Below, one piece after another: positions 20,646 to 42,647 of a stretch of DNA of 64,000 nt. The notes below the pieces were generated by a model. It had not been told where the DNA came from. It did not search any database and saw only the letters and a list, made by a program, of their open reading frames with translations. The first letter of the stretch is position 1; the number at the start of each line of letters is the position of its first letter. The DNA is from a virus, in the IMG/VR virus record IMGVR_UViG_3300048838_000628, positions 18,024 to 82,023 of that record; one strand, written 5' to 3'. The translations under genes were made by a program, and so were the position numbers.

Positions 20646-22451
20646 CTAAACTTCAAATACTACGATAGCGGTTAGATCAAGCGTATCGCTTGTAGTCCAA
20701 CTGCCGCCAGACGGTCTAACAGCTATTTCAAATGTTGCTCCAGCAGTTGTAGGAACAACTACAAAATTTGCAATGTAACGACCGTTATTAACTGTTTTAA
20801 TTCCGTTCTGCGTGTCAATAATAAAATCGTTCTCTTTATAGAACTGTTCAATATAACCAGAACTTGTAAGATTGTGTACAACACTCTTACCATCAAGATC
20901 AAGAGCAAAATAAGCTACAACACTTGCACCTGTAGGAATTGGTCTAATATCACCAAGAAGCCAATCAGCAGTTTTGTTAACAGTAAACTTATACCAATCA
21001 AAACCGCCAGAATTATAATTATTTGCCGTACTTAACGGTATGTTGTAACTGTAATAACCGATGTTGTGCATCGGTGAAGTAACAAGGAAATATTCACCAC
21101 TTTCCCGCAACTGCCTACCAAGAGAAATCAAAATCTTTTCTTGTGAAGCATCTCGTTTAAAATCGTTTGTCGATTGCAAAACATAACTTATATTTCGTTC
21201 TTCTTGAGAGATGCTCATAGTGTATGATTTAATATAATAAGTAGCGTTGTTTAAAGAGAACGCTTCTATTTTCTTTGTATTTGCTTGCCCGGTCATTGCA
21301 TTGTATTTACTCATAAAATGAGAATAAGCTAGTTCGACTGTGTTCCCCGGCATAATATCTGTTGAAAATTCTGAACTACTAATTTCAATTTCAGTATCGC
21401 CTTGAGATTCTTTTATCTCTGTGATACCTTTGCCGTACACTGTGTCACCGGCCTGTTGTCTTTCTGTAGCAGTTGGGTTTTCTAAAGTATCGGGTTGTAT
21501 CTCTTTATAATAGAAAGTCAAGTATTTCTGGTCATAATCAAAATTAGTTACAGAGCTTTCGTAAGTAAAATTATTTGGAGCATCAATAATATAAGGCGAA
21601 ATAATACTGCCATATGTACTCTTATCGCTTGCCATAACAATTTGTGGCGTGGTGGCTGGTGTACCTGTTTTATATTCCCAACCGTAGCCATAAAAGCCCG
21701 TTGCCCTTGGCTCATTTGGAATGCGAATATTAAACTCATCTATGTTCTTTTCGTTGTATTGTAGACCGGTTGATTCGTTAAATACTCCACACTCAATTGA
21801 GTGAACAACAGCAAATAATCCGCCACCATAGTGTACGAGTTTGTTACCTCCATATCTGAAATAAAACTTTGGCACGCTTTCAGATATTTTCTGCAACTGT
21901 GCTAAAATGCTTTTCTCATCTCGCAAATCAATTCTTGTTGCAGTTGATTTAGAAAATATACTATGAAACCTAGTTATTTCCCAATAAGCATATTGATTAT
22001 TTCCGGTTGTTGGGCCGGGGATAGAGATATTCTTTAATATTGAATAGAAGCCCGCTAATGCCGTTTTATTGTTAACAATTGTGTTAGGAACGGCAGCGGT
22101 GTAATTGAGCAAATAAAGCATATCGTTACAATCAAAGGTTATTTGTCCATCAAGAATGTTGATATTTGTTTCGTATAACATTCCAGTAACAATAATTTTG
22201 CCATCTTCTTCAACTTCAACATAATAGTTCTTATTTTTAACGATAGGAAAGTCGTTCATAAAGTTGAAGTTGTTTACGTTTGTTGTTACTTTAAACGTAG
22301 TAAGCTCAACTATACTACGGCTAATCTCTACGCTATCTGCCAAAAATTCAAGAACCGGAGAAGCGTGTGATAAAATCTCAAAATTTATAGAGACATAACC
22401 ACCACTACTTGAAAGTCGATTTACGCCTTCATAAATAGATGTTTTAATCAT
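20646..22451 (-). CDS. tail tip / baseplate hub (Tal-like) protein
   Basis: Second gene after the tape measure; size and beta-rich composition. Confidence 0.65.
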   Translation of the reverse strand: MIKTSIYEGVNRLSSSGGYVSINFEILSHASPVLEFLADSVEISRSIVELTTFKVTTNVNNFNFMNDFPIVKNKNYYVEVEEDGKIIVTGMLYETNINILDGQITFDCNDMLYLLNYTAAVPNTIVNNKTALAGFYSILKNISIPGPTTGNNQYAYWEITRFHSIFSKSTATRIDLRDEKSILAQLQKISESVPKFYFRYGGNKLVHYGGGLFAVVHSIECGVFNESTGLQYNEKNIDEFNIRIPNEPRATGFYGYGWEYKTGTPATTPQIVMASDKSTYGSIISPYIIDAPNNFTYESSVTNFDYDQKYLTFYYKEIQPDTLENPTATERQQAGDTVYGKGITEIKESQGDTEIEISSSEFSTDIMPGNTVELAYSHFMSKYNAMTGQANTKKIEAFSLNNATYYIKSYTMSISQEERNISYVLQSTNDFKRDASQEKILISLGRQLRESGEYFLVTSPMHNIGYYSYNIPLSTANNYNSGGFDWYKFTVNKTADWLLGDIRPIPTGASVVAYFALDLDGKSVVHNLTSSGYIEQFYKENDFIIDTQNGIKTVNNGRYIANFVVVPTTAGATFEIAVRPSGGSWTTSDTLDLTAIVVFEV

Positions 22452-23653
22452 TAGTAAACCCTATGTAAGTGCAAAGCACCAACTTCGTTAGTTGGCCATG
22501 CTAAAGTAAAGGATATGTCTACTTTATTTCTAATTCCTATTAGTTCTCCGGGGCATCTTGTTGAGAAATCCCATTTAGGGATAAATAATTCGTTAGTACG
22601 ACTATCATAAACAGGATAGCCATCTTTAATCATAAAACTATGAGGATAGACATCGTTTTGCGAATATAGTACTATGTCCGTTGACAATCCTGTAGCTGCC
22701 AATCCAACGCTATTTGCTACACCATAAGACCTAAGGTTATCATCTAAATATTCTAGGTTTAAAGTGCTTGTAGTTGCTATAATATTAAATGGCGAATATT
22801 CTGAATTAACCGTGATAACCAAATCATGCCCTGTGCCAAATTCTATATGGCCAAAAGCGTGTAAGGTTCTTACAGAGCCAGAATGTGGCGAACTAACAGT
22901 ATAGCTTCTCATAAGAGAGCTTGTGCTTAAGCTCTGTGCATACACAAATGAACTATCGTTCCAGTCATCCCAATAGGCCGTATCGTAAAGTAAAAAGCTA
23001 TTAACAAAACGACGTTTAACCCAAACAAATTCAGGTTCATAATGAAATGGCGCTACTTGACAAGGATGATGTATTAGATTAGTAACACCAACAACCTTCT
23101 CTTGAACGCCTAGGGTAATGTCTAACGGCGTCCCATTTTCTTCTAGTTCAAAAACATTTGGGATAACATCTCCATAAATTGGGATATAAAGATACTTATT
23201 CAAAGGCTCCCAATATGGGTTTGCTTCTAATTCAAAAGATATTTCTAATGACGCTAAAGGATCAGAAACGCTTTCGTCTAGCGTATAAGTTCTTTCAACA
23301 GAGCTAATGCGCCCATAAGTATGATACCAACGAACGCATTCGCTCACTCCGCAACAAATACTGCAAGAAGAACCGACCTCACAGCAAGCATTAGGCAGAT
23401 ACCCTATAATATCAATATAGGGCCTGCCACCGTTTCGCATTAAATCTACTAGCTGTCTAGACGCCGTGTTGCCCCTGTGTGCTGCTATTGTTCCAGAAAC
23501 GCTATAGCTAGCAATCTCTGGTAGGGGATATAGAGAGTTATAAAATACAGTAGAACTGAACTCGTTCTGCAAACCCTCGTTCTTCCATTCCACAGGCGTG
23601 CTGTGTTCAGCAAATCCGCGTATTACAACATCACCTACCTGATAGATAAACAT
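22451..23653 (-). CDS. distal tail (Dit-like) protein with Cys cluster
   Basis: Directly after the tape measure; FELEANPYW motif; CCEVGSSCSICCGVSEC. Confidence 0.65.
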   Translation of the reverse strand: MFIYQVGDVVIRGFAEHSTPVEWKNEGLQNEFSSTVFYNSLYPLPEIASYSVSGTIAAHRGNTASRQLVDLMRNGGRPYIDIIGYLPNACCEVGSSCSICCGVSECVRWYHTYGRISSVERTYTLDESVSDPLASLEISFELEANPYWEPLNKYLYIPIYGDVIPNVFELEENGTPLDITLGVQEKVVGVTNLIHHPCQVAPFHYEPEFVWVKRRFVNSFLLYDTAYWDDWNDSSFVYAQSLSTSSLMRSYTVSSPHSGSVRTLHAFGHIEFGTGHDLVITVNSEYSPFNIIATTSTLNLEYLDDNLRSYGVANSVGLAATGLSTDIVLYSQNDVYPHSFMIKDGYPVYDSRTNELFIPKWDFSTRCPGELIGIRNKVDISFTLAWPTNEVGALHLHRVY

Positions 23654-26600
23654 TAAACCCCCGATGCACCAGAAAGCTTCAAAGTTCTAAAAGTCTCTCT
23701 TGCTTTGCGCTTTTCCATCTTCTTTACAACAGCCTCGGCCACAGCTTCAGGACTACCAGCCCCATTTACCGTTATATACGTGTCACCTTCGTTGATATTC
23801 ATACTACTCATACCAACACCGGCAGCAGCGTTTATCTCACGTGTACGGCCCGCAGGAGAGTAAATTTGACCATTCTCGTTGGAGATTAAATAGGTCTTGC
23901 CCTTGCTAGTCCGATACGTTTCAAACGGTAACCCGTTTTCGAGAACCTCATATTTACCACCAGCGCGAACACCACCACCATAGAAACTTGTACCATCTGT
24001 TGGTTGAATGCCCTCGCCTGGTCCCAATCCTACATTAGAGTTCAAGAACGCAACCTTCATACGCGCTAATGACAGAATTGCATCTTCGATCTTATCAATA
24101 AATAGGTCGAGTTCGCTACGAGCAACTATAAGGTTTAATTTAAGTATTGTTGTAGCAATAGTAAATGTAGAACTAAAGACTACAAGGTTTAGAATAATTT
24201 GCGATAGTGCAATCGTAACCTTGTTTGCCATTATAGCGGTCATGACTGAAATAGTTTCAAGTTCGCCAACAACTTTATCGACAGATTTTTTAAGGTCGCT
24301 AACGTTGTCATCAATGCCTTTTTGTAGACCTTCAATGATATTTTCGCCAACGGTTTCATATACAGTTGAAGGAGATTTAATACCAAGAGCATTTTTAGTG
24401 CCTTCGTCTAGATATTGTCCAATCCCTTTACCGACATTTTGCAGTCTTGTTGTATTTTCACTTGTTATTAATCCAAGTTCTAAGCCTTCAAGAATACCAT
24501 TTAAGTAATCATTGCTAAGAGCGCGAGTATATTGATTTTCGGGATCATAAAGCGAACTTATAAACCCCCTAGCAATACTCTTTGCATCTTCATCACTAAT
24601 AGCATCTTCTTGATTGTGTAATAATCCGTTAATTATGCTCGTATAAAGATCGGCTCCAGCTTGTGGCCCAAGCAGATCATAAATCGGTCCCATGCTAGAT
24701 TGTAGTTCTGCCACAACACCGTTTATTTCCGATTGTTCTAATGGGCGAAGATTGCCAGATGCTAAAATACTCAACATATTAAAGCCAGCAAATTCTTCTG
24801 TGGCCATTAACTGATTTACTAAAGCATCGCTTTCATTTAATGTAGCAAGATCATCAACAACTCTAGTCTGTAAATCAGCTTTTGTTGTTTCACTAAGCCC
24901 AGTATCTTGAGCAACAGCGCCTTTTATAAAGCTATCTATTAATCCAGTTACGCCCTCTATTGTCAAGAAGCCGCTTATATTTTCTTGATCCAAACCAAGC
25001 TCCCCAAGAGCAACATTTCTTAGCAATGCTTCTTTTAGATTTGTTGGCATATTCTTTAAGAACGGCAAATTAGCAAGCTGTTCGGTTGTAAATTGCGTTT
25101 CTGGATCAATACCAAGCATTCTGAAAACGTTAAATGCATCATTAGCGCTATCGGCGTCACCAGAAGTAAGTAAAGTATTGATTGCGGCATAGCGTAAGCG
25201 TTCTTTAGCTTCTGCACTTAAGGTATAATTTTCTGGATTGCTTAACGCGTCCCTGAACGATGTAGCAACCAGCTTACCAAATGAATTAGTAAACCCAAAC
25301 GTACTATCAAGCTCAAGAGTAGAAAATTTGAACTGCTCTCCAAAAGCCAATCCACCTATTAATTTATCTCGTTCTAATTGAAATGGGCGCTCTTTATTGG
25401 GATCAAGCTCGTTAAATATTTGTAGGTCTAAAGCAGCAATCTTAATACGAGTAATAATGGTATCAATGATTGCAATAATGCCTCGCAAAGAGTTTTCAGC
25501 TTGTATTCTAAATACGCTAGCTGGCCCAAGGCCAATAGCCTCCATGACATTAAATGTAGAATTTGCTATACTACCAAAGAACGCCTGTAGAGCATCCCAT
25601 ATGCCCTCTAGCGCCTTGTCAGCGTTCGCTTGAACCTTGTCTTTATCGCCCTCTATTAAACCTTCGATAACGCCAAATGCACCCGATGTAGCGGTTAGTA
25701 GAGAGGGTAGGGCTTCGGCAATACCGCCAATAAGCAATTGCAAACCAGCAAATCTAGCAACTGTCATAACCATTGACGCTACTTTTATTCTGTTCATAAA
25801 TGCTATAAAAACAGCACCTATTTTTAGTAGCGAGTTAATATCGTCAGAAGTGAATTCTTCTGTCAAAACGTTAAATGTTTTACCAATATTTTCGATTAAC
25901 GGTAGTATAAACGTCTTAAGTTCTAACAAAGCAACGCTACCAACAAGCAATGCTGCGCCAGCAACAATATCGTTTATGAACTTCAATATACCAGACACAA
26001 ACGTGGTTATGCTTGTAAAATCTATTCTGTTGATTTCATCAATTATGTCTTTAACGTCTTCTATTAAAGCGTTAAAATAACTAACAAATGGATTACTGCC
26101 AGATTTTGCAGAACTTGGCATAATGCTGTCGTTTTCCATAATACCAACACCGGCTTTTAAACCGTTTGCGGCATTTTTATCCGGGTTCATTATTTCGCCA
26201 ACAGCTGCTAGGGCAAGATTAATCTGTTCACCAATATAACCAACAGCTTTGACGATCTCATTGCCAATTTCTGTTTTTTCTAATTCTGTTCTAAGATTAA
26301 AAACATCGTTTTCAATAGCCATAGCCAACATGTTAGATACAAAAGCTATAGCGCCAAACGGAAAACCAAACACAAGAGCTAAACCAGCGGTTATGCCAGA
26401 GCGAACAAAATTATCGACATTAGTCTCTAAGAAGGTTTTTGCTTCGGTATAATCGCCATTTGCAATATCCGTAAGAACTCTGCGTATATTAAGTATTGCA
26501 AGGTCTATACTTTCGCTCATATTTTCTGGTTTACCGATTTCTTTGATGCGTTTTTCTAGTTCTTCGTTAAACCCAAAAAGGCTTCTCGTTATTGTCTTTG

Positions 26601-29600
26601 TTGGCATTCCAAATTGGTTATCTGTTAAACCGCCAGATTGTGCGAAAGCGTATTCTTCTTCTGGAGTGCCAAGATTTATTTCACGTTCACCAAAACCAAA
26701 CTGATTAAGACCGCTACTAAGCAAAGTCTGTAAAGCGCCAACAGGAACAAGAAGTGCTGTTCTAAAAGCTTCTTTCCAGTCTTTGTTTTTAATGTCGTCA
26801 ATTAGTTCACTAATACGTCTTGTAAAAGGATTTTCTGTTATTTCTATTCCAAGAGTCGTTAGAACCGATTTAAAGTTCTCTTTAAGGTTTCCAACAGCTA
26901 TTGCTAGTTCATCAGAACCTTGCTTTGTTTCGCCACTAAATAGTAGACCAATAGCTTTCCTGGAATCAGCGAAGTCTTTGTTTAGCCCGCGCAAGTCGTT
27001 TCTTAAATCTGTTATTTGGTCAACTGTAAGATTCTTACCAAACACTTTAGCTGCACCAGCGAATCTTTTTGTCGTCTTTTCACTATCGGTCATTTGGTCT
27101 TCAAGGCGCTTCATTTCTTCATATTGATCTTGGAGCATATCGGAAACATCTTCGCCTTCAGAATTATATTTAGACCAAATCTTTATTGTATCACCGTAGT
27201 GATATACGCTATCTTTAGTAAGACCGTTCCACTCTCTTAGCTGGTCTACAGAAACACCATAACGCTGTGCAATTCCCCAAAGACTATCGCCTTGAGCAAG
27301 AACAAGTTCTTGATACATGCCAAGCGCAGGATCGTATAACGTCTTTAGTCTGTCAAGCTCTGGATTTGTTTTTCTTGGCCCGCTTTCACCAGCAGCGCCG
27401 CCAGTTGGCCCGCTACCAAAAGTATTATCTATTAACGCTTTTAGTTCATCAATTGGTGTTCTAATTAAACGGATAGATTCAACAAAACCGCTTAAGAAAA
27501 CATTTACTCTTTGTATGGCATTACCGATTGCATCTGCAAGAAACTTAACCAATGGAGCAAATATATTGCCAATTGTTATTTTAAGATCATACATACGGTT
27601 CTTAAGTCTCTGAATAGAAGCGTCCGTAGTTTCATTACGGATACGTGCCTCATTCATAAGAGCATTATTTTCACGCCAACCATCGTTACCGACTTCAACG
27701 GCTTTATTAACCAACTCGTTAGCGTTACCAAGACGACGCAACATGTCAGAAACACGAATACCGTCTAAGCCAAGCTGATCGAACAAAACAACCTGTTCCT
27801 CAAGAGGGTATTTAGAAAAGCCCTCAAGCATATCCAAAAGAAACTCCGCCGGTTTTTGTTTCTGCAACTCTTTTAATTCAGCACCAGTCATTCCGGCAGC
27901 TTTAGCAAATAACTCAAGTTCTGTTCCACCTTTAGCTAAAGCGTTAATGCTTTTCTGCATAAACTGGCTAAAAGCTGTACCGGCTGCTTCAGGGTTAAGA
28001 CCGACCGATTCCATAGCAGCAGAGAACGAAAGAATCTCCGGCACAGAAAGACCGAACGAGACACCGACACCGGCAATGCGATTTGACATTTCAGCAATAC
28101 CGCTTTCAGTAGCGGCAAACTGATTGCCAAGCGTAACCATTGTACTGGCAACTTTATCAAAATCTTTACTTCCAGTAATGGCCGAAAACTGTCCAAGGAA
28201 CGTAGCTGCTTCTTCGCCACCAAGATTAGTGGCAATTGTCATAGCACCGACGGTTTGAGTAAACTTTTCCATCAATTCAATAGGTATACCAAGCGTACCA
28301 GCAACTTCAGCGATCTCAAGAATAGTTTTTGAAGCATCTGATAGACCAGATAAAACACTATCATTGCCAGTCGCCATATCTCTAAATTGTTGTGTTAATG
28401 TGGCCTGTACTTCTTTTTTAGTTTCTTCTGGTATTTCAATTGTTTTGAAAACCTGCGCTAAACCTTTTTCAAATTCAATTGCCGTTCCAGCAAAAACAGA
28501 GCCTAGTCCACCAACAAACATTCTAAGATCATTTATTGCAAAACGTAAGCGATTGCTTATTTGTTTAAATATACCGCCTATTGCATCACCGGCTTTTCTA
28601 AAAGGGAAAGTTATAATATTGGCGATATTAGAGAAAATTGATTTAGTAGTGTTTACAACACCTTTAAATGCGTTTATAACTGTTTTTGCTAAAAACTCTA
28701 CAACAGCCTTGATTTTACTAAAACCAGATTTCAAGCCTTCAACAATATTTTCACCAAAGCGCTTAAAAACGGCACTAGGGGAGCGAATTCCCCATGAGAA
28801 TTTGGCACCACGATTTACTTCGTTACCAAAATCTTTACCAAGGTTAAAGCCTGCACGTTTATCAAATCCGCCAGCTTTCATGCCTTTGGATAATTGCTTA
28901 ACAGAATTAGCAAAACCTTTAAAGTTTATATCTTTCATATTAACGCCAGATAACTTTTCTAGCGTTTTTGCAATAGCAAGGATTGATTCAGAGAAAGAGC
29001 GAAATTTATCTACTGTATTTTTATTAACGCTGCCAATATCTTTCATAATAGCTTTAAAGCCACCAAAAGGTAGTAAGGGTATGCCATTAAGCATTCTGCG
29101 TATAGTTCCAAGACTTTTTATAACAGTTTCTACGCTAACGCCTTCATCAATACGAGCAAGAACGCGAAATACCTTGCCTATATTTACGACAGCTTCAGCA
29201 AAACTTGAAAACTTTTTAATGTCATCTGATTTAAAACCAGATATACTCTTAACAATGCCCTTGAAGCCGCCAATGTTGAACAAACCTGTAGCACTAAGCA
29301 TTCTGCGTATTTTGTTTAAGTTTTCAACAATATTTTCTGTGCTTAAATCTCTTGAGTCCACAGAAAGCGATCTAAAGGCTTTGATAATACCAAGCATACC
29401 CTCTGTAAATCCACGTACCTTTTCTACTTGCTGAATAGATACGCCACCTTCGTTTTTCTTAAATATATTAAAACTAAAGCTTTTAAAGCCGTCTAGTTTT
29501 TTAAACAGTTTCGACATACTTTCAAGCATATAAAGCGATTCAACCAAAAAAGAGTTTAACTGTTTAGAAGCATTTTGTATATTTAGCTTTTCAACACTTT

Positions 29601-32600: not shown

Positions 32601-32630
32601 AAAAGAAAGGGGCGGTTTTTAGGCCGCCCC
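32601..32630 (-). terminator. intrinsic terminator after major tail gene
   Basis: GGGGCGG-cctaaaaa-CCGCCCC-TTTCTTTT. Confidence 0.8.
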
Positions 32631-32640
32631 AGTTGCATTA

Positions 32641-34149
32641 CTAGCAACCGCCACCAATGCAAAGATTGCAAGTAGCGATCTGAACAAGATTGCCGTCAGC
32701 CGTGACAGCAAGGAAGTAGTTCACACCTTCGTCAAGCAAGGGCGAACCCGCAACGATCTGATTAATAACACCAGCGCCAGCAAACGGCGAAACTGTCTGC
32801 CAGTTCTGATTGGTCAGAGCTTCACGTTTGCGCAGAGCCGCACCAGCACCAGCCAGAACGCGATAACCGAATTCGTCACCAGCCAGAGCGCCAATAACAA
32901 CATTGCTGGCAGCAATAGCGATCTTAGTGTAGCTTGAAGCAAGATTGTCGGCAGTGTAGTTTTCGTAGATGTGACCATCTGCGCCACCAAAAACAACGTG
33001 ACCCGAACCAAGGATCGTGACCGAAGTCAAGTCCGTAGCAGCCGTGCCACCAACCTGTGTGCTAATGTCGGTAAACGTAACACCGTCATAAGCATAAGCA
33101 GTAGCGCTTGAAAGAGCAAGGTACATCAGACCAGTACGCGAGTCATAAGCTGCGTCCAGAATGTCTTCAGTGTCAATATCAGTCAAAGCCGTGAAGGTCA
33201 CGCCGTTATCGCACGAATAGAAAACTTCACCAGCCGTACCGAGAGCGTAAACCTTGCTGAACGCTTCGATAACCTTGTTGACGCCGGTTGAAGCTGCACT
33301 CAAAGTTGAGAGAGCGAAAGCCGCACCACCAACCGAGTAAGCAACACCACCATCGGTACCCGTGCCGCCAACAACGTCAGTATAACCAACCACATAGTTA
33401 CCGTTAACATAGGCAGCTGAAGAAATATCGGCAGCAACCAAATCGCCAGTAATCGCAGTTGTCGTAATAGCAGTAAAACTAGCGCCACCATCAGTCGAAA
33501 GCAGAGCATCGGCGCCTTCGCCAGCAATAAAGATCGTCTGGTACGCGCAGTCCACGCTCTCGCAACGCTCGTTAACAAGCACAACCGTATTAAGACCAGC
33601 ATCGTGGTCAAACATCAGCTTGTTCTCAAGGCCGTAATAGTGACGCAGGTTACCAACGATAGCCAGAGTACGCATTGACGTAATCGGATTTTCGTTGTCG
33701 TCATAGCCAACAATCGCAGCGTTGTACTGACGCACTCCCATGTTGAAGTCTTCGCCTAGCCAGAAGTAGCTATCACAGCCATCATCGCAGCTTGACGGGA
33801 CAAAAAGAATATCGTACCGTGCGCCAGCATACTGCGCCTGATAGATACGATCCGTAACCGAAATCATCTTATTCGGAAGCATCATGTTCACGGTCAAGCC
33901 CTTAACCTTGTCACCGGTCAGAGTACGCTCAACGAGAACATTACGACCATTCAGATGACGGTACTCAGGAAGAATCTTGCGTTCCGTGAGATTATAGCTG
34001 AAAGCTTCGTCCACACGATGACCGCCAAGATAAACCAAATCAACCGGATTATCTTTACGGGCCGCATACATCTTCATCGTACCAGAGTCAAGCAACGCAC
34101 CGGTTGCCTGCTCGTCCTGCTCGCCCCCGCTAAAATAAACAATAGGCAT
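32641..34149 (-). CDS. major tail tube protein with C-terminal BNR-type beta-propeller
   Basis: High-expression codon bias, terminator downstream, precedes the chaperones; Asp-boxes STDGGASF and SCDNGVTF. Confidence 0.72.
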   Translation of the reverse strand: MPIVYFSGGEQDEQATGALLDSGTMKMYAARKDNPVDLVYLGGHRVDEAFSYNLTERKILPEYRHLNGRNVLVERTLTGDKVKGLTVNMMLPNKMISVTDRIYQAQYAGARYDILFVPSSCDDGCDSYFWLGEDFNMGVRQYNAAIVGYDDNENPITSMRTLAIVGNLRHYYGLENKLMFDHDAGLNTVVLVNERCESVDCAYQTIFIAGEGADALLSTDGGASFTAITTTAITGDLVAADISSAAYVNGNYVVGYTDVVGGTGTDGGVAYSVGGAAFALSTLSAASTGVNKVIEAFSKVYALGTAGEVFYSCDNGVTFTALTDIDTEDILDAAYDSRTGLMYLALSSATAYAYDGVTFTDISTQVGGTAATDLTSVTILGSGHVVFGGADGHIYENYTADNLASSYTKIAIAASNVVIGALAGDEFGYRVLAGAGAALRKREALTNQNWQTVSPFAGAGVINQIVAGSPLLDEGVNYFLAVTADGNLVQIATCNLCIGGGC

Positions 34150-34154
34150 TTTTC

Positions 34155-34376
34155 TTACTCCTTAAGCAAACGTTTGGGTAACTCAAATTCTTTTGGAAAG
34201 TCGGGGAAGTTCTCTAGAATAAGGTTTGCGGGAATCCAAAACTTAGTCTTTCCATCCGTCACCCGTACTTGATTACCTCTAATTCCAGTCAAACGTGAAA
34301 GCTTTACTGTTTGAGGAACCGGAGGGGCTTTCTTTACTTCTACCATTACTTCTTCTTTTACTTCGATTTCGTCCAC
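34155..34376 (-). CDS. small hypothetical protein
   Basis: In-operon ORF. Confidence 0.6.
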   Translation of the reverse strand: MDEIEVKEEVMVEVKKAPPVPQTVKLSRLTGIRGNQVRVTDGKTKFWIPANLILENFPDFPKEFELPKRLLKE

Positions 34377-35648
34377 TTAGAGACTACTCCCTTCAACATT
34401 GTAGCACTTATACTGGGACATTTCGCGCAAAGCCATAGTTATACCCTGATAAGGAGGATAACCAGACAATAGTGCGATTGTTTGAGGCGTTAACAATTCT
34501 TTATATTCACTACCATAACTCTTACCGCTACTGCTGGCCTCTAATACGGCAATACGTGGGACTTCACGATAGTATTTAATCTTTTGCTCTGCACATTGAT
34601 CGCAGTCACACCATGCACGCACACAGTCAGCTAGTCCGATAGCAAGTTTAGATAAGATTTGTGAAACACCATACTGTACGTCGCCGCTGTAAAGCGGTTT
34701 AATACCACTAAGATAATTCACCGCAACCTCTTTTGGAGTGCATTGCAAACAATATCTTTGCATTACTCCGTTGTCATCACACATAGAGGTTTTTGGCACT
34801 AACCACGTTTCTTGACCAATTGTACGTCTTTGAAAACAAACAGGAACAGCTAATTCGTCACAATTGCCGCCATAACAATCCGTACCATTACAAACAAAAT
34901 AACCTTGTTCACATTCGTCAACATAAGTATAAAAAGCTAGAACTTCATCAACATATGTTTCTTCAGCATGTGGCAAACAAGTCTCTTGTTCATCAAGAGA
35001 AGGCTTTTTAAGTAAATAGGCGGGAATAGTAACTGTGCAAGTATCGCCATTAATAACAATACCGCGCAAAGGACGAATTTCGTATTCTCGATCTGCAAAT
35101 GTAGGATCAACAATATAGTTTGCATCAGCAGATGTGAAATAAAGCTTAATGCGGCTCTTATCCATACCTACCGGTACAGTGAACGTTACAGTGAAATTTT
35201 GCTGTAAAGCGCCACTGACAACAGGTTTAACTACTTCTGCTAAACCGAGATACATTAACCCGATTTTTCCTGTTTCTTGAAAACCACAAGAATTTTGCAA
35301 TCTTACTGCAACATATTCTCCTGATTTTAGACGCATTCGATTCAAATTGTTCGTTAAACGATATTGAATTCTCTCGTTTTCCACTTGTTCTGTAGATGGG
35401 TGTAAATTTGTTTCCCAATAAAACACCTGCTCTGCGTAAGTTAACATTCCGATTAAATCATCACGCGACCAATGAGATGCCTGAACCCAAGGTCGCTGTA
35501 ACATACAAAAGCATTTTTCTGTTTTTTGGTTTGGATAGTTAAACACACTATCGCCAGAAAGATCAATTCCAGCAGCATAGAAAGGCTCAATGCCAAAAAA
35601 CTCTACAAATTGCAACAAAGGCATTAGAGTATTACTTCTCATCTGCAA
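34377..35648 (-). CDS. Cys-rich head-tail adaptor/connector
   Basis: Position; SRDDL...AE and VNYLSG...LSKLA adaptor-like motifs; 18 Cys. Confidence 0.6.
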   Translation of the reverse strand: MQMRSNTLMPLLQFVEFFGIEPFYAAGIDLSGDSVFNYPNQKTEKCFCMLQRPWVQASHWSRDDLIGMLTYAEQVFYWETNLHPSTEQVENERIQYRLTNNLNRMRLKSGEYVAVRLQNSCGFQETGKIGLMYLGLAEVVKPVVSGALQQNFTVTFTVPVGMDKSRIKLYFTSADANYIVDPTFADREYEIRPLRGIVINGDTCTVTIPAYLLKKPSLDEQETCLPHAEETYVDEVLAFYTYVDECEQGYFVCNGTDCYGGNCDELAVPVCFQRRTIGQETWLVPKTSMCDDNGVMQRYCLQCTPKEVAVNYLSGIKPLYSGDVQYGVSQILSKLAIGLADCVRAWCDCDQCAEQKIKYYREVPRIAVLEASSSGKSYGSEYKELLTPQTIALLSGYPPYQGITMALREMSQYKCYNVEGSSL

Positions 35649-36051
35649 GCCTCCCTATAAAAATAGTTGCTGTACTACACGCTAAAATAAGCATAGCAAT
35701 AATGAAAACCGGATTTAACGCTACTAGAATGACATTCAGCGTGCCTACCCAAACAGACATACACCAGATACAAGAAAATAATTCAGCAAAATGATTAGTA
35801 TAAATCTTATCTAAACCTGTAGAGTCCATTCCTAGCTCAATGGCTTCTTTAAGCGTTAGGCGTTTTTCAATTATTTGTTCACCATCGTGTTTTTCATAAT
35901 AAACATAACGAACGCCAAAGATATGACGAATAATCGTAAAAATATGCAAAAAGCCAATTTCGTCAATAAATAGACTGCTTAAGCGCCAAGTTGCTAGAAA
36001 TAAAACTATAACAACAACTGGATTAAGCAACCACAATAAGGTCTCCGGCAT
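35632..36051 (-). CDS. DUF1360-like membrane protein with CxxC
   Basis: LATWRLSSLFIDE.G..IF..IR ... ELFSCIWCMSVWVG; three hydrophobic segments. Confidence 0.8.
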   Translation of the reverse strand: MPETLLWLLNPVVVIVLFLATWRLSSLFIDEIGFLHIFTIIRHIFGVRYVYYEKHDGEQIIEKRLTLKEAIELGMDSTGLDKIYTNHFAELFSCIWCMSVWVGTLNVILVALNPVFIIAMLILACSTATIFIGRLADEK

Positions 36052-36214
36052 TTGCGTCTTCCTTCATCACGTAGAATTGCTGAAGCGGTTTTCTGTACCC
36101 ATAAACCGTTTTGCTAGTCTGGCCTTGGTAATATCCCGCTTGATCGCCAACATACCGCACAAGGGTGTATTCATCCATGATATTAACTTTTGGCTTCTCT
36201 TTACATTTACACAT
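36023..36214 (-). CDS. small protein with N-terminal MCKC
   Basis: GAGGA RBS; similar to 36217..36600. Confidence 0.7.
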   Translation of the reverse strand: MCKCKEKPKVNIMDEYTLVRYVGDQAGYYQGQTSKTVYGYRKPLQQFYVMKEDANAGDLIVVA

Positions 36215-36216
36215 GG

Positions 36217-36600
36217 CTATTCCTCTTTCTTCTTGCGCCGCGTTTTCTTAACTGGTTCTTCTGTTTCTTCTTCTTGTTCAACTACTTGTGCTTCAACTTC
36301 ATAACTCATGTCTTCGTCTTGAGATACTTGTACAAGAACATCAAGAACGGCTTCCGGCTCTACAACCGGCTCTTGTACCTGATAGATGCTGAAAAGAGAG
36401 AAGTTCTTAACTTTACGAGTTAAAAGAAAATCTACATCTTGCGGATGTACTTGCTGAATTTGCTTGTTCTTGTTATCAAAAACGTACATGTTCCGCATAG
36501 GAGACACAAACGTAACCTGTTTACTACCGTTATAGATTAACTGAATTCCATCTTCGTAAACCATTGTTGTATTAACCTTTTTAATTTTTCCGCAACACAT
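36217..36600 (-). CDS. small protein with N-terminal MCCG and acidic/basic tail
   Basis: In-operon; similar to 36023..36214. Confidence 0.75.
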   Translation of the reverse strand: MCCGKIKKVNTTMVYEDGIQLIYNGSKQVTFVSPMRNMYVFDNKNKQIQQVHPQDVDFLLTRKVKNFSLFSIYQVQEPVVEPEAVLDVLVQVSQDEDMSYEVEAQVVEQEEETEEPVKKTRRKKKEE

Positions 36601-36601
36601 T

Positions 36602-37654
36602 TTACACCATACCTAGTAATAAATCACCATACACTCTGCCAATAGCTTGATGTGCGCGAGTGTTAAAATGTACCTGATCTATCATGTACTCTGTAGCCCA
36701 ATCAGGATTTGCTAAGAAAACGCCTCTAGCGTCTAGTAGAGCAACGCCCTCAACTACTGCAATATCCTCTATTTCATCGCTGTAAGCCTCTACAGCGCTA
36801 TTTGCTGGCTCATCGGTACGTGGGGGCACATTCATCAATATCGGCGTCACAGAGGCCGTTTCTAGGGCATTTATGATACTTATAACGTTAGCCCTAAAGG
36901 TCGGCATTGCAGTTCCACCAGCAGCGTCGTTTGTACCCGTTTCAATCATACAGAAAGTTGGCTTTGGTGAATGACCAGTAATGTTACCGACACGTGCAAG
37001 CACTTGACCTGCGTTATTTCCACCTTCGCCATCAATTACCGGAATAACATAATGACGCAAGTCTCCGTACACCTTTGCAATTGCTGTAGATGTAAACGAG
37101 AGACTGTTATCGTCAAGTTCTGCTGAAGATGTGCCTATCCAGATTAACTGGCTATCGCCTAAAGCGCCTATGGCGTATTCCGCCGTTGCCAAAGAGTTAA
37201 TCTTCTGGATTACCACATCTTTGAAAGTACGTACTTCTGTAGAATTATCTGCTATTCCTGTAACACGAAATTCAACACGCCAGTTAGTATCTGTAGCGGT
37301 TTTGAAATTTAATTTGTAGTTTCTGTGTATTGCCGAAGTGTCATAAATCTCTGGCATGTAGCGGATTAAGCCACTATCAGCCTCTTTAACACCAAACTGG
37401 CAAAAACGGTTTAAATCACCTTTGGCACGAAAACGTAATTGGTAATAAGTATTTTGCTCTAACGTAATGTCCTGATACACTCTAGCGTAACCTGCGGCAT
37501 CGCCGCCTGCTGCACGAGTTAGTGTAATTTTAGTACCATCGTCTTCTTCAAATGATCCAGAGATACCGCTAAGAGCAGATATTTCTGTTTCCCAAGTGCT
37601 TAATTCAATTGAGCTACCGAAGTAGCTCGGTAGGGTTAAAATTCCATTAGGAAT
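36602..37654 (-). CDS. carbohydrate-binding-like domain + SGNH/GDSL esterase; probable ATT start at 37654 (track start 37480)
   Basis: GDSQ, GTND, DQVH blocks; VYQDITLEQNTYYQLRF CBM-like; frame open up to an AAGGAGG-5nt-ATT. Confidence 0.8.
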   Translation of the reverse strand: MPNGILTLPSYFGSSIELSTWETEISALSGISGSFEEDDGTKITLTRAAGGDAAGYARVYQDITLEQNTYYQLRFRAKGDLNRFCQFGVKEADSGLIRYMPEIYDTSAIHRNYKLNFKTATDTNWRVEFRVTGIADNSTEVRTFKDVVIQKINSLATAEYAIGALGDSQLIWIGTSSAELDDNSLSFTSTAIAKVYGDLRHYVIPVIDGEGGNNAGQVLARVGNITGHSPKPTFCMIETGTNDAAGGTAMPTFRANVISIINALETASVTPILMNVPPRTDEPANSAVEAYSDEIEDIAVVEGVALLDARGVFLANPDWATEYMIDQVHFNTRAHQAIGRVYGDLLLGMV

Positions 37655-37687
37655 AATTTCCTCCTTTTAGACCGGGGCTTCTTGATT

Positions 37688-37954
37688 TTACGGATCGGGA
37701 CGTCGCCGCCAATCCGGCTGCACTTTATGGATAGCGCTATCTTCAATTGCTACGCATTCCGCGCGTTGTCTAGGGTCTAAGAACTCAAACGACTTCCACA
37801 TCTGATAATACTGTTCAGATGTCATCGAATGAATTTCCATACGTTCGACGACGCACGGGGGCGGATTACTGCCGCCGTGTTCGAGCCAATCGTTTAGATC
37901 TTTTAATGCTGATGCAGCGGCACGAAAGCGTTGCCCAATCCTATCAAGATCCAT
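37688..37954 (-). CDS. hypothetical protein within GC-rich cassette
   Basis: AAGGAG RBS before ATG. Confidence 0.6.
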   Translation of the reverse strand: MDLDRIGQRFRAAASALKDLNDWLEHGGSNPPPCVVERMEIHSMTSEQYYQMWKSFEFLDPRQRAECVAIEDSAIHKVQPDWRRRPDP

Positions 37955-38006
37955 CTCACACTCCTTACATCAGAACGAGCCCGTAGGCAATTCGCATTCT
38001 GTCGAC

Positions 38007-40043
38007 CTACGACGGCTCGTACTCTACGAGCTTTAGTTTGCCATTTTCCGCACTCGGATATGGCAATGCGACGGAGATTGGCAGGTAGAATTTTGATTGA
38101 GACCGCCACTGTATCGGGTCCCACGACGGGTTCCACAGTTGAACATCGAAACTGTACAGTTTCTCGGTTGTCCAAGTGGTATCGTCAGACGATCTGTAGG
38201 CCAGCAACCCAAAATCATCTGAGTTGTTATATCCGACGATAAACACCGTGTTGTCGCTGCGCCGAACTGCAATTCGGGGAGGGGATAGCACCGGATTAGC
38301 CAACCCCACAAACGTACCAACGATGTGTGGTCCAACGCCGGTTTTTACCCACGAAGTCCCGTTATGCCACGTGTGGAAAAAGCGTGAATTACTATCGACG
38401 TCGTTTTTAATGTATGCAAGATGCGGATTGCCATAACTGTCCGCGTCAATGCTTAATTGCGACGTTAATCCGGAGGATTTAGCAACCGCATCGATGATAT
38501 CACAGTTTGCGAGCGTAATTGGCACGGTCTGCGCTGAGCCATCGCTTTGTTCCCAATTTGCCCCGTCCCAGCGCACATATGACACATCGTGGTTAGCCAG
38601 TGACGAGATAGTTTCCCGCCAGATAAAGCCGAAGTGCATATAGCCACCCGCGCCGAAATCGTTATCAAATGCGGGTTGTCCCCAATAGGCGTTCTGATCC
38701 GGCGTGCTGTTTTTACCGTCGATCAGAAGCCCGGCCGTCGTTCCGGTTGCTGCCCCCCATGTCTCTGTCCCCGCGTTGTATACGTAGAAATACAGGTCAC
38801 CGTCACCACTGTCACCATCGCGAAACATATAATATAATGTTCCGGCAGGATCGGTGAAAAATGTGGGATATGTCATCGCAGATTCGTTCGTCCCCAGCAT
38901 CGACAGTTCCGCTGAAAGTTGACCGTTGAACGTATTTAGCGGCAGCGTAGACCGGCGGTATTTCATAGCCGACGTTCGCGTGTCATAGACAATGTGTAAA
39001 TAGCCGTTAACGTCAATGCCGATGTTGATGACATAGTGGAAATCATCGACTGTTTGTTGTAGTGTTGGAAGCGACGGGTTAGTACCGTCATAGGCGTACC
39101 ACGTCCAAGCGCCGTCAAGTACGCGAACCCCAATTCTCGCGTATTGGTTATCATCCCAATATGCAATTGCCTGGTAGGTTGTCGATCCAATAACGACGCT
39201 GTATATCGCGTTCTCGCGAAAAGTCGCGCCGTTGGAATTGTTAGACGTGAGAGAGTCGGTTGCGATTATAGTAGCCGTTTCTGCCACCGTTACCGGTTGC
39301 GCCAGATCGTTCCACATACCCTGAACGTCTGTTAGCGTTAGTGTTGTCCCACCCCAATAGGCCACATAAGCCAACGCGCCATCGAGGACGCGCGTATTCG
39401 CGGCAGATGCACCAACTAATGCAATGGTGAGATTGCCAACCCATGCGCCAAGGGTCGCAGGTGATTGACTGTTTATCAGCGCGCCATTAAGATACATTTG
39501 CACAGAGTCATCGCTCTTGGAATAGACGAGCGTTAACTGCATCCAACCTTGATTGGCGTATAGGCTACTCCCCTGATCCGTCGTGCCGTCCGCCGTATAT
39601 CTCCATCCGAGCTGGTTAACTGTGTTTTTCTGCAGGAATACAAGATTGGTCCCATCGGCAAACAGATGGAAGAATCTATTGTCGCGACTATCGTAATAGG
39701 CGTCACCCATACGCACGCAAATAGATACAGATCCCTCACTTTGGTTAAACACGCTGGCCAATGCAGATGTGAACACATTCCCGATACTGCTTGCCCCGTC
39801 ACTGACCGGCGACATTTCACCGGGAATAGGACCCGGAACAGATTGCAAGCTCCATCCCGATTGCGTCCCCTCATATCCTGCCGGAACGGAAGTGATTGCA
39901 GCCCCGGACGCAATATCTACGAGAGGGTAAACAACTGACGCCCCGTAGTTAGCAACCAATCGCTCGGCGTAGTTCATAAGCGCGCCCGCCCCGCTGCGCC
40001 ACGTCGGGATGTCTACCAGTCGTCCTATGCTAATACGTGTCAT
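38007..40043 (-). CDS. LamG/concanavalin-like lectin domain + BNR-4 repeat beta-propeller
   Basis: W.QLTLVY...MYLNG, G.LAYVAYW (LamG); IAYWD, D.HYVINIGID.NGYLH, TYPTFF, RDG.SG.GD (BNR_4). Confidence 0.8.
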   Translation of the reverse strand: MTRISIGRLVDIPTWRSGAGALMNYAERLVANYGASVVYPLVDIASGAAITSVPAGYEGTQSGWSLQSVPGPIPGEMSPVSDGASSIGNVFTSALASVFNQSEGSVSICVRMGDAYYDSRDNRFFHLFADGTNLVFLQKNTVNQLGWRYTADGTTDQGSSLYANQGWMQLTLVYSKSDDSVQMYLNGALINSQSPATLGAWVGNLTIALVGASAANTRVLDGALAYVAYWGGTTLTLTDVQGMWNDLAQPVTVAETATIIATDSLTSNNSNGATFRENAIYSVVIGSTTYQAIAYWDDNQYARIGVRVLDGAWTWYAYDGTNPSLPTLQQTVDDFHYVINIGIDVNGYLHIVYDTRTSAMKYRRSTLPLNTFNGQLSAELSMLGTNESAMTYPTFFTDPAGTLYYMFRDGDSGDGDLYFYVYNAGTETWGAATGTTAGLLIDGKNSTPDQNAYWGQPAFDNDFGAGGYMHFGFIWRETISSLANHDVSYVRWDGANWEQSDGSAQTVPITLANCDIIDAVAKSSGLTSQLSIDADSYGNPHLAYIKNDVDSNSRFFHTWHNGTSWVKTGVGPHIVGTFVGLANPVLSPPRIAVRRSDNTVFIVGYNNSDDFGLLAYRSSDDTTWTTEKLYSFDVQLWNPSWDPIQWRSQSKFYLPISVALPYPSAENGKLKLVEYEPS

Positions 40044-40141
40044 GGTCTCAACTCCTCACCGCGCGGTTCTTTCCACGCCAGATAAACGATCCCCACCAAC
40101 AGCGCCAAGGCTGCGATATTCCCTATTATGTAAAGGATCAT
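40040..40141 (-). CDS. 33-aa single-TM peptide MILYIIGNIAALALLVGIVYLAWKEPRGEELRP
   Basis: ATG one base after the upstream stop; its stop overlaps the next ATG. Confidence 0.5.
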   Translation of the reverse strand: MILYIIGNIAALALLVGIVYLAWKEPRGEELRP

Positions 40142-40142
40142 C

Positions 40143-40508
40143 TTATTCGCCCTTAACTTGCTTAAGCGCTTTCTCCCACGCTTCAGCAGATACACGATAC
40201 GTCCCACGGGTATGCCAAGTATTAGCGCCACCGTAACTAGCGACAAATTTCTGTAAACTATCTGTAGCAATCAAGTAAATATCGCCAGTCTCGGTTCCTA
40301 GAAGAACATGAGCGTAAGAGAAATAACTATCGTAAACTACAGTGATGTTCCCAAATGAATGAGTGCGTTCAGGAGTTTTAAACCCTGTAATGCTGTTCCA
40401 ATCTACAACTTCGCCTTCCAGCAAAGCCAAAGAAAGATCGAAACTTCCTTCAGACCAATAGGGCTCTGACCAGACAACTGCTATAGCGCCATCTTTAAAT
40501 ATTCTCAT
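40143..40508 (-). CDS. hypothetical protein (start MRIFKDG)
   Basis: ATG follows the upstream stop. Confidence 0.6.
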   Translation of the reverse strand: MRIFKDGAIAVVWSEPYWSEGSFDLSLALLEGEVVDWNSITGFKTPERTHSFGNITVVYDSYFSYAHVLLGTETGDIYLIATDSLQKFVASYGGANTWHTRGTYRVSAEAWEKALKQVKGE

Positions 40509-40509
40509 G

Positions 40510-40908
40510 TTAATTGCCAGTATACAAATAAAGTGTTCTTTCAGCAGCCTGATTAACCGCTGTAGCCGCGCCAACTGTCACAGAAAGAATCTTCATGTAA
40601 CGCATTCGCTGAATAGGAGCCCAAATCTCAGCAGGAAGGTGATAAATACCTTTTGCATTGGTTTTAATACCGGAAATACGTACTTCGGTACCTTCGTGGT
40701 CATAAGCTGTTGCTAAATCAACTGTATCACCATTAGGCGCAAACTGGAAGATAATATCGGCAGCAGTCCAAACAGAAGGAACAATAATAAAGCCACCACG
40801 CGGCTCGCTAAAATGCCATAAATCAATAGGGTCGAGATGCGTGTTAGAGCTAATTGGAATTGTCACGCTTGTAGCAAATGTTTCGTTAAGCCTAGCCGTT
40901 GTAGTCAC
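40510..40908 (-). CDS. small virion structural / decoration protein
   Basis: PSVWTAADIIFQ motif typical of small beta-rich phage head-region proteins; directly after the capsid gene. Confidence 0.6.
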   Translation of the reverse strand: MTTTARLNETFATSVTIPISSNTHLDPIDLWHFSEPRGGFIIVPSVWTAADIIFQFAPNGDTVDLATAYDHEGTEVRISGIKTNAKGIYHLPAEIWAPIQRMRYMKILSVTVGAATAVNQAAERTLYLYTGN

Positions 40909-40921
40909 TTTTTACTCTTTC

Positions 40922-40949
40922 TAAACAGGAGGGGCGGTCAAGCCGCCCC
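40922..40949 (-). terminator. hairpin / weak terminator after major capsid gene
   Basis: GGGGCGG-cttga-CCGCCCC, poor U-tract. Confidence 0.6.
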
Positions 40950-40964
40950 AAACCTAAAGTCTAA

Positions 40965-42647
40965 TTACGCAGCTTCGTCGTAGGTGACGATAGTAACAGT
41001 CGCGGTATCGCTACCGGCTGCATTGGTAATGGTGTAAACATAGGTGTCAACACCCTCAAAGGTTGCGCTCGGAGGCACATACGTGAACCCGCCATCAACA
41101 GTAATAGTAATCGTACCGCCTTCGGTCGTAGCAACAGTTGTAACTGCCGTAGCTGCCGGAGCAGGAGTACCAGTGTCGTTTACCAACAGACCGCTACCAG
41201 CGGCAACAACTAGCGAACTAGCACCAACTTCACGGGTGTAGAAGTCATTGTTCGCAACAGGAGCAACCTGAGTTACGAACCCACTAGCCTTCGGGTAACT
41301 AACCAAGTTACCTTCAAAGAAGAATGTACTCAAAGGATCACCAGACTTTGCACCATAGATGCTATCGCAAGCAACATCGATAATTTTCATTTGTGCCCAA
41401 GGACCGGGCATGTCAACGCGCCACTGAAGTTCAGTGTGGATGCGATAGCAAGTGTGGTCAAGCGTCTTCCACGACAGAATGCGCGAATTATCGCTAACCA
41501 TGTACTCGCTACCAGCCGGAGGAGTAGCCGCAACAGCCGACATATCCTTAACCTGAATACGAACCAGCGGCGTATTACCGACATTGGGCGTCAGGATCAG
41601 AATAGTAGCAAGAGCAGGGTCCCCAGGTTCCGCACCAGCCGACAACAGACCGTAGTCGTAGGGGAAGAACACAACCGGAACGCCATGGAACGTCAAGGTA
41701 ACATTCTGACCGGCCATAAGCGTGTTCTTAAGCTGATTCAGCATAGCCTGAACTTCACTTTCCATCATCCACTCTTTGTTGCCGCCGCAATGCGTGTGGC
41801 AAACCCAAGCGTCAATCAGACAGTTGAGATGTTCAGTCGGGATAAGGCCAATGTGTGTCGGCATACCGGACAGCGAAGAATGGGCAATACGCTGGCGGGT
41901 CAAGCGAAGGAACGAGGCCACATAGTCATAGAAAGCATAGCCGTCAGTAACAGCATCGCCATTAAACGTAACACCAGTAGCGCCATTCTCAGGAGCAAAG
42001 CTGTTGCCATTATAGTCAATAACCGTGCTGTCCATAGACGTACAGGCTTCACCGGTTTCGGGATCAGTGTAGCCATAAGTCACTAGCTGAAGCAGACCAT
42101 CGGCCTCGCCAGCGTTCGATTTATTGCCGTTGATAATAAATCTCTGAAGGTCTTGCAGCATAACAGTCGTCTGACGAACCACGTCCCACTCATAGTCGTC
42201 ATCGATCATATTCCCGCCGATGTCATAAATCGGGCGCTGTGACGAATAACGAATAGGCAGGTCGGTAATGTCACGCGTGTCTGATGACTTGCGCATACGG
42301 CCCCAACCCTCTAGCAGATACGAACAGCCACCAGACTCAACACCAGTACCCGGAGCGCACGCATCAGCATGAGCGCTAGAAACAGGTGAACCATCGGCAG
42401 TACCAGCAGGTGCAACATAAGTCAGGAAATTACGCTTAATCAAATGAACATTGCTGTTCACAAAACCAATAGCATCAAGAGCGCGATTGTAGCCACCCAA
42501 AAGGGTGAAAGAAACAATAGCGTCTTCCGAATCGAGATCAAACAACGGCTGGTTATACAAACCATCAACCGGCCCAATCGACAGCGCTTCCGTACCAGAA
42601 TCACGCTTGATGAAATTACCGCCCTTTGAATTACGTTTCTGCATCAT
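40965..42647 (-). CDS. major capsid protein with in-frame C-terminal Ig-like (Big_9/cadherin-like) domain
   Basis: Follows protease/scaffold; strong codon bias; FIING...EADGL; C-terminal APVANND...LLVND...DGGFTYVP...FEGVDTYVYTI. Confidence 0.85.
   Translation of the reverse strand: MMQKRNSKGGNFIKRDSGTEALSIGPVDGLYNQPLFDLDSEDAIVSFTLLGGYNRALDAIGFVNSNVHLIKRNFLTYVAPAGTADGSPVSSAHADACAPGTGVESGGCSYLLEGWGRMRKSSDTRDITDLPIRYSSQRPIYDIGGNMIDDDYEWDVVRQTTVMLQDLQRFIINGNKSNAGEADGLLQLVTYGYTDPETGEACTSMDSTVIDYNGNSFAPENGATGVTFNGDAVTDGYAFYDYVASFLRLTRQRIAHSSLSGMPTHIGLIPTEHLNCLIDAWVCHTHCGGNKEWMMESEVQAMLNQLKNTLMAGQNVTLTFHGVPVVFFPYDYGLLSAGAEPGDPALATILILTPNVGNTPLVRIQVKDMSAVAATPPAGSEYMVSDNSRILSWKTLDHTCYRIHTELQWRVDMPGPWAQMKIIDVACDSIYGAKSGDPLSTFFFEGNLVSYPKASGFVTQVAPVANNDFYTREVGASSLVVAAGSGLLVNDTGTPAPAATAVTTVATTEGGTITITVDGGFTYVPPSATFEGVDTYVYTITNAAGSDTATVTIVTYDEAA

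Follow-up and report, generated by a model that had tools for sequence, protein, structure and literature searches.

The DNA analysed here, called the window below, is a stretch of 64 kb (bases 18024-82023) of the IMG/VR virus record IMGVR_UViG_3300048838_000628, which spans 82,023 bases with direct terminal repeats and represents an uncultured phage genome of 82 kb. The structural genes of this phage lie on the minus strand of the window, and among them, between the capsid and the neck/adaptor positions, three small genes stand side by side on the same strand. They encode a 127-amino-acid (aa) protein that starts with MCCG (36217..36600), a 63-aa protein that starts with MCKC (36023..36214) and a 139-aa membrane protein of the Pfam family DUF1360 (35632..36051), which carries C-I-W-C at residues 94-97 (35761..35772). 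We refer to the 63-aa and 127-aa proteins as Cys-hook proteins 1 and 2 (Cys, cysteine). The initial annotation of this locus, whose open reading frame (ORF) coordinates were all recovered by ORF recomputation, had proposed these genes as a candidate disulfide-forming system for a Cys-rich virion. Here we describe that DUF1360 and the Cys-hook constitute a conserved, widespread two-part module, and we consider what this module may do.

The 139-aa ORF scores 27.9 bits against the Pfam profile PF07098 (DUF1360; cut-off, 21), and the match was also obtained in the whole record. An exhaustive search of a representative library found 265 relatives at E <= 1e-3, and 157 of them were aligned with the window protein (158 sequences). 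Both C94 and C97 of the CxxC motif are kept in all 158 sequences, and the family signature can be written as C-x-W-C-x-S-x-W, where W96 is present in 132, S99 in 155 and W101 in 155 of them. R23, E31, G33, R42, G46, S99, W101 and S126 are each found in 149-155 sequences. The window protein shows the signature together with the W-R motif in the first helix, R23 being present in 151/158. Since 90 of the 157 homologues contain exactly two Cys, both in CxxC, only one Cys pair is conserved in DUF1360, as far as the alignment tells.

The AlphaFold2 model of the window DUF1360 protein (predicted local distance difference test score (pLDDT), 95.6; predicted template modelling score, 0.84) consists of three long helices (residues 11-30, 95-112 and 116-138), with a short helix and a beta-hairpin inserted in the predicted cytoplasmic loop, and CxxC starts the second long helix. 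On average, the loop before CxxC contains 5.3 Lys plus Arg in the family, against 0.16 for the N-terminus and 0.27 for the short loop. The positive-inside rule predicts an outside location for the N-terminus and the short loop and a cytoplasmic one for the long loop and CxxC. Thus, two features of DUF1360 in the initial annotation, CxxC at the start of a helix and its exposure to the cytoplasm, agree with the model plus the invariance in 158/158 sequences and, as a prediction, with the family Lys and Arg counts.

The resemblance to the thiol oxidases VKOR and DsbB, from which the initial annotation drew, went no further. Like them, DUF1360 is small, helical and membrane-bound, an essential-looking CxxC stands at one end of a membrane helix, and the partner protein has a Cys pair. 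DsbB and VKOR, however, are four-helix bundles with CxxC on the periplasmic side and two Cys pairs, whereas DUF1360 is predicted to have three long helices and one pair, on the cytoplasmic side. The second, loop Cys pair of VKOR and DsbB takes electrons from the partner; no such pair is conserved in DUF1360, as is evident from the 90/157 homologues with exactly two Cys. No sequence match to VKOR or DsbB was found either: a Pfam scan at E <= 0.1 gave only DUF1360. The PDB sequence-profile search at E <= 10 returned CD276 as its sole match, which we regard as spurious. Foldseek of the model against PDB gave a best E of 2.0 and VIA-align against 48,161 chains a best Z of 6.8 for generic helices, and neither VKOR nor DsbB was among the matches listed in either search. 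A membrane thiol oxidase of these known types is therefore not supported by the structure, nor did the four kinds of search (Pfam, PDB profile, Foldseek and VIA-align) find a link in sequence or fold. The passages naming DUF1360 that a full-text search of the literature returned give neither function nor partner.

BLASTP gave no alignment between the two Cys-hook proteins at E <= 100. A profile built from seven glycosyltransferase-fused domains of related viral loci ranked the 63-aa ORF first (E 2.5e-6) and the 127-aa ORF second (E 1e-3) among the 94 window ORFs. Their relatedness, which had been noticed in the initial annotation, thus stands at the level of this profile of seven relatives and not at that of pairwise alignment, and by it the two proteins are assigned to one undescribed family. 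A third weak profile match at 60729-60953 (E 0.0055) was rejected, as it has one Cys and no hook. In the common layout, a Cys pair at the terminus (CC, CxC or CxxC, in most cases with a Gly after it) is joined by a short basic segment to a small beta domain. In the window, the 63-aa protein ends with a five-strand beta domain, and the 127-aa protein has an acidic low-complexity tail after its beta domain. An alignment of 49 sequences (the 127-aa protein and 48 others) showed that C2, C4 and Y38 are invariant, while the spacing of the pair varies (CC in 12, CxC in 19, CxxC in 16 and CxxxC in 2). Over the 12 residues that follow the pair, Lys/Arg make up 21% and Asp/Glu 2%, whereas each of the two groups accounts for 11% elsewhere in the domain.

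The model of the 63-aa protein (pLDDT 81.5) shows the five-strand beta domain and a less confident N-terminal tail. Its best matches in fold searches were weak ones to GINS B-domains (E 0.31 and Z 4.4), from which we draw no function, and a thioredoxin fold was not found in these searches. The hook family has no match in Pfam, PHROGs or NCBIfam, and the 127-aa protein matched only unnamed clusters in the ESM Atlas. The initial annotation had imagined the small proteins as shuttles; they consist of a small beta domain to which a flexible Cys tail is attached.

To see how far the pairing extends, we scanned IMG/VR with the DUF1360 alignment; of the 267 loci confirmed in this way, the best 80 were retrieved and counted. 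These 80 loci were chosen for DUF1360, and some of them are contigs of the related loci L002-L008 again or near-identical pairs. A hook-family domain is near DUF1360 in 44 of the 80, usually at the end of a glycosyltransferase of 900-1050 aa just upstream of DUF1360 and free-standing in, for example, L028, L032, L034 and L044. Another 26 loci, from a different phage group, encode directly upstream of DUF1360 a protein of 122 aa whose C-terminus carries an invariant CGCGS and then R-L-R-x-W. In this group (L052-L055, L061 and L067-L089), the gene order is a protein of about 168 aa, the 122-aa CGCGS protein, DUF1360 and a protein of about 590-600 aa with two Cys. In total, a hook or a CGCGS protein accompanies DUF1360 in 70 of the 79 viral loci with a recovered DUF1360 ORF. 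Neither partner was seen in nine of the 80, three of which are without upstream DNA, and the DUF1360 ORF was not recovered in one. Two loci came from metagenome-assembled genomes: a 55-kb contig assigned to Saccharibacteria (L009) has a hook-bearing protein, DUF1360 and a protein of the family of the 423-aa window protein encoded next to DUF1360, and a 2-kb contig assigned to Hermodarchaeota (L010) has a hook-bearing protein and DUF1360 only. Each of them may be a prophage, and hence a hint to the host, or a binning artefact.

The module is not confined to uncultured phages. DUF1360 is present in 11 of 301 Acidobacteriota genomes, and in nine of these 11 loci an adjacent ORF of 71-117 aa starts with M-x-CCG or MCRCGG and shows the same beta-domain signature; the hook profile built from phages matches eight of the nine. 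Six Acidobacteriota loci were inspected over wider flanks, and in four of them the upstream neighbour is a protein of 640-724 aa that contains 13-19 Cys. These proteins stand before DUF1360 in L108, L109, L111 and L112 and also contain 11-15 Trp; three have no Pfam family, and that of L111 has only weak Ig-like or transthyretin-like matches. As for the remaining two loci, one has a TPR-CHAT protein with three Cys, and the module was not resolved in the ORF listing of the other. In cultured phages, DUF1360 was found in 479 actinophage records (365 from Mycobacterium and 99 from Gordonia phages), usually between the large terminase and portal genes. Besides DUF1360, Arthrobacter phage AWGoat (gene 105, starting with MACGAC) and Rhodococcus phage ReqiPine5 (gp13, starting with MGCSCGG) have small Cys-led ORFs just before the capsid gene. 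The co-occurrence of DUF1360 with small Cys-led genes, which the initial annotation had put forward for this phage, therefore holds in viral, bacterial and actinophage loci far beyond it.

The phage of the window has two free-standing hooks; most of its relatives carry a single hook as an extension at the end of a triple glycosyltransferase. All seven related viral loci encode upstream of DUF1360 a glycosyltransferase-bearing protein that continues in frame into a Cys pair, a linker and the small beta domain; the one of L004, for example, is GT4+GT2+GT2 with a C-terminal hook. The pair in the fused proteins is usually preceded by Met, as in MGCGC, MACRKC or MCGC. An in-frame ATG lies directly before the pair in 29 of 34 fused genes (L003-L008 among the loci, for example at 9430 of L006), and a purine-rich word resembling a Shine-Dalgarno sequence stands 5-18 bases before every one of the 29 ATGs. 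Long ORFs of these loci served as the control, and of the 1136 Met codons inside them 182 (16%) have such a word. Because of this combination of an internal ATG and a Shine-Dalgarno-like word, the nucleotide pattern suggests that the hook is also translated alone from an internal start. This remains only a lead, because the conserved Lys, Glu and Gly codons before the Met are purine-rich anyway. The other five of the 34 fused forms have no ATG before the pair, so that it can only be internal there.

With regard to the Cys content of the phage proteins, the counts given in the initial annotation were all correct. There are 18 Cys in the 423-aa protein, eight each in the 560-aa, 502-aa and 400-aa proteins, four in the 958-aa polymerase, one each in the 486-aa and 435-aa proteins and none in the 228-aa and 132-aa proteins or the 2370-aa tape measure. 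We evaluated these numbers by a binomial test against the background of the phage's own proteins, 1.28% Cys. The idea of a Cys-rich outer shell was upheld for the 423-aa protein (4.26%, P 1.2e-5), which is the only enriched one of the four proteins concerned, and not for the capsid-, tube- and Dit-position proteins (P 0.42, 0.31 and 0.14, respectively). The strong signal is rather a depletion, that is, zero Cys in the 2370 residues of the tape measure (P 6e-14) and one Cys in each of the portal- and scaffold-position proteins, and the long proteins at the tape-measure position of five related loci, L002-L006, have no Cys as well.

The gene for the 423-aa protein (34377..35648, minus strand; neck/adaptor position) is the downstream neighbour of DUF1360, and homologues directly follow DUF1360 in L003-L008 and in 41 of the 80 viral loci. 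An alignment of 30 members revealed 1 to 18 Cys in three classes, the Cys-poor class having lost a whole Cys-bearing loop and a CxC. The homologue has at least six Cys in 34 of the 41 loci and 1-5 in the other seven. DUF1360 and the hook are kept in all seven loci with such a Cys-poor homologue (<= 5 Cys), and loci fetched through the Cys-poor branch of the family also have both in 7/7. The trio of DUF1360, hook and 423-aa protein is therefore a constant of this phage group, and the persistence of the module beside Cys-poor homologues does not support the reading of the initial annotation. The 423-aa protein had no match in Pfam or NCBIfam, one sub-threshold match in PHROGs and no usable match in the ESM Atlas. 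ETV6 fusion chains, the sole matches in the PDB sequence-profile search, were rejected as spurious. Nor is the family related to the Cys-rich neighbours in Acidobacteriota, since hmmsearch gave nothing below E 0.2.

The 502-aa protein at the major tail protein position (32641..34149, minus strand; C-terminus CNLCIGGGC) presents a similar case. Among 36 aligned homologues, three Cys columns are occupied in 35 and three more in 25-28, and in the window protein the conserved Cys come in two closely spaced pairs, C121/C125 and C196/C201, an arrangement compatible with a Cys4 metal site or with two local disulfides. Such conservation argues that these Cys are functional. Both the 423-aa and the 502-aa protein have Cys clusters that are conserved traits of their own families and would be metal sites or disulfides. 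No finding connects the module with a cross-linked shell, and the module occurs also in bacteria, where there is no virion.

The remaining genes of the structural block could be named mostly by position. The large terminase (46640-48859) was identified by a PHROGs match, and most other head and tail genes had no family match in Pfam, PHROGs or NCBIfam. The capsid-, adaptor-, tail tube- and Dit-position proteins had none in the PDB profile searches either, and their names therefore refer to gene position only. The capsid-position protein (560 aa; 40965..42647, minus strand) has a C-terminal Big_9 Ig domain at residues 462-553, all its Cys lie between residues 97 and 427 and none in the Ig domain, and BLASTP aligns it weakly with a protein of 470 aa in L006. 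A 73-aa protein without Cys (34155..34376, minus strand) is encoded between the 423-aa and 502-aa genes, at a position occupied by a gene of roughly 99 aa in relatives. The 2370-aa tape-measure-position protein (23653..30765) is followed by the 400-aa Dit-position protein (22451..23653), both on the minus strand; the latter has six of its eight Cys within residues 90-106. No similar DNA was found in cultured phages by megablast, nor the window DUF1360 protein in cultured-phage DNA by tblastn.

Upstream of the hook genes, the window has on the minus strand (36602-40043) a GDSL/SGNH esterase-like protein of 292 aa (36602..37480; Pfam Lipase_GDSL_2, E 2.5e-17), just next to them, and a BNR_4 beta-propeller protein of 678 aa (38007..40043; PF15892, E 3.8e-50), which replace the glycosyltransferases of the relatives. 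The BNR_4 protein sits in the capsid-to-neck cassette, where relatives carry GT4+GT2+GT2 proteins, and this cassette seems to swap carbohydrate-active enzymes. Mycobacteriophages carry virion glycosylation cassettes, and the relatives of the window phage similarly have multi-domain glycosyltransferases between the capsid and neck/tail genes. The window, in contrast, has BNR_4 and the GDSL esterase and no glycosyltransferase, and the hook and DUF1360 are not known to be described for the mycobacteriophage cassettes. Some other ORFs are also rich in Cys. Those at 43976-44557 (193 aa, 13 Cys) and 45996-46643 (215 aa, 9 Cys), on the minus strand, are inserted among the terminase, portal-position and scaffold-position genes, and the 215-aa one matches HNH endonuclease families. 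Outside the structural block on the plus strand, 62231-62779 encodes 16 Cys in 182 aa and 63139-63849 encodes 8 Cys in 236 aa.

What does the module do? We favour, tentatively and at somewhat less than an even chance, the reading that the hook docks on the cytoplasm-facing CxWC of DUF1360 by thiol chemistry. We prefer it because the feature that the two partners share is a Cys pair on each, and that of DUF1360 is predicted at the cytoplasmic face. DUF1360 would be a small inner-membrane protein of three long helices, the second of which has C-x-W-C at its cytoplasmic end. The hook may lie with its basic N-terminal peptide on the inner face of the membrane, a location that fits the basic stretch following its Cys pair, and there the pair would meet CxWC. 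The two pairs could then be joined via a shared metal ion or a mixed disulfide, which would tether or charge the hook, plus any fused or bound cargo, at the membrane beside head-neck assembly. A precedent for sharing is known in the CD4/CD8-Lck zinc clasp and the Rad50 zinc hook, in which short Cys pairs of two chains share one metal ion. Likewise, two Cys pairs, one of them on a membrane protein, could share a metal and tether a soluble partner in the module; there is no sequence relation to the clasp or the hook of Rad50, 12 of the 49 hooks have adjacent CC, and metal sharing in the module is hypothetical.

Several points weigh against this docking. The viral counts are not independent because of the repeated contigs and near-identical pairs among the 80 loci. 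In six viral loci the final count recognised no partner although sufficient upstream DNA was available; one of the six, L085, had matched an earlier profile weakly (E 5e-4). Mycobacteriophage Orion has DUF1360, but the position that holds the hook ORF in AWGoat and ReqiPine5, the only one checked, is without such an ORF in Orion. Adjacent CC pairs, as in the 12 hooks mentioned, are poor ligands for a single metal ion. Finally, free-standing hooks such as those of the window tether nothing obvious.

One specific form of docking through thiol chemistry is the relay proposed in the initial annotation, in which DUF1360 would be a cytoplasm-facing thiol oxidase that passes electrons to quinone and the hook a shuttle disulfide for the Cys of virion proteins or, in bacteria, of the Cys-rich neighbour. 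It would have to be a new thiol-oxidising relay unrelated to DsbB, VKOR and Erv that installs virion disulfides, and we consider it unlikely. It draws on the invariant CxWC at a helix start, predicted to be cytoplasmic and surrounded by conserved Arg, Glu, Ser and Trp, and on the hook pairs, which are mostly CxC or CC (31/49). In Erv2, CGC tails serve as the shuttle disulfides, and protein disulfide isomerase can be mimicked by CGC peptides. A Cys-rich neighbour is also usual, if one takes together the 34/41 loci with at least six Cys in the 423-aa homologue and the 4/6 Acidobacteriota loci. Yet DUF1360 has no redox cofactor domain or second Cys pair, the searches in Pfam and the PDB profiles and two fold searches gave no VKOR, DsbB or Erv match, and the hook lacks a thioredoxin-fold match and is fused to a glycosyltransferase in most relatives. 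Moreover, the module is retained beside the 423-aa homologues with 1-5 Cys, and three of the four 'shell' proteins are not enriched in Cys. Poxviruses do have a cytoplasmic disulfide relay, E10R/A2.5L/G4L, and Erv2 has flexible CxC shuttle tails. The module is similar in being virus-encoded and made of small cytoplasmic proteins with Cys pairs, and the flexible CGC-like tail of the hook resembles a shuttle disulfide. On the other hand, Pfam, NCBIfam and the fold searches of the hook found no Erv/ALR flavin adenine dinucleotide, glutaredoxin or thioredoxin domain in the three window proteins.

Two other explanations were considered. DUF1360 may be an unrelated phage membrane protein, for lysis timing, exclusion or the assembly site, and the hook a separate accessory domain that merely stands next to it. 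The neighbours of DUF1360 indeed differ among phages, with the terminase-portal position in actinophages, Orion is without the hook at the place checked, and no function comes from the literature passages naming DUF1360. We nevertheless find mere adjacency quite improbable, as DUF1360 and its partner are found together in viral gene contexts of two unrelated kinds as well as in Acidobacteria, the gene order differing between them, and both partners keep an invariant Cys pair. Alternatively, DUF1360 may help to S-acylate or prenylate the terminal Cys pair of the hook, which would thereby be anchored to the membrane. The motif M-(G/A/S)-C-C or C-x-C before a basic stretch resembles the dual-Cys lipid anchors and lipidation motifs of eukaryotic proteins, the variable Cys spacing would be tolerated, and the pair is C-terminal in the second family, where CGCGS is followed by R-L-R-x-W. 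Lipidation is, however, highly improbable in our view: the summary of the family alignment shows no invariant or near-invariant His or Asp of the acyltransferase type, we know of no cytoplasmic S-acylation system in bacteria, and the pair can only be internal in the five fused forms without a preceding ATG.

The module has no characterised relative, and the pairing is new to print as far as our literature searches reach. Disulfide-stapled virions are known from the phages Jabs and Milano, and the likeness to the window phage is that Cys are conserved in its 423-aa and 502-aa proteins and that DUF1360 is frequent in actinophages; the window phage is known from sequence alone. The virion-wide disulfide networks of these two phages speak for the relay, in that their source is called an open question. 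Passages of PMC13576161 (2026) call the source of phage virion disulfides so, and section 17 of the Jabs preprint (2026) leaves open whether they form spontaneously or by host or phage enzymes. The two texts are in line with the statement in the initial annotation that no phage machinery for disulfides has been described.

Hundreds of uncultured phages thus carry a two-gene module with two invariant Cys pairs, which occurs as well in bacteria and in 479 records of cultured actinophages, and the pairing would give DUF1360 its first functional partner. It is a concrete and testable candidate for the question of virion disulfides, though it does not answer the question itself. If the relay were true, it would explain the source of the virion disulfides of the Jabs and Milano types: virion proteins would gain disulfides in the reducing cytoplasm, and in bacteria the module would serve the neighbouring Cys-rich proteins. 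If the module is not an oxidase, it would still be a conserved membrane-docking device, and one that most of the related phages link to enzymes of virion glycosylation.

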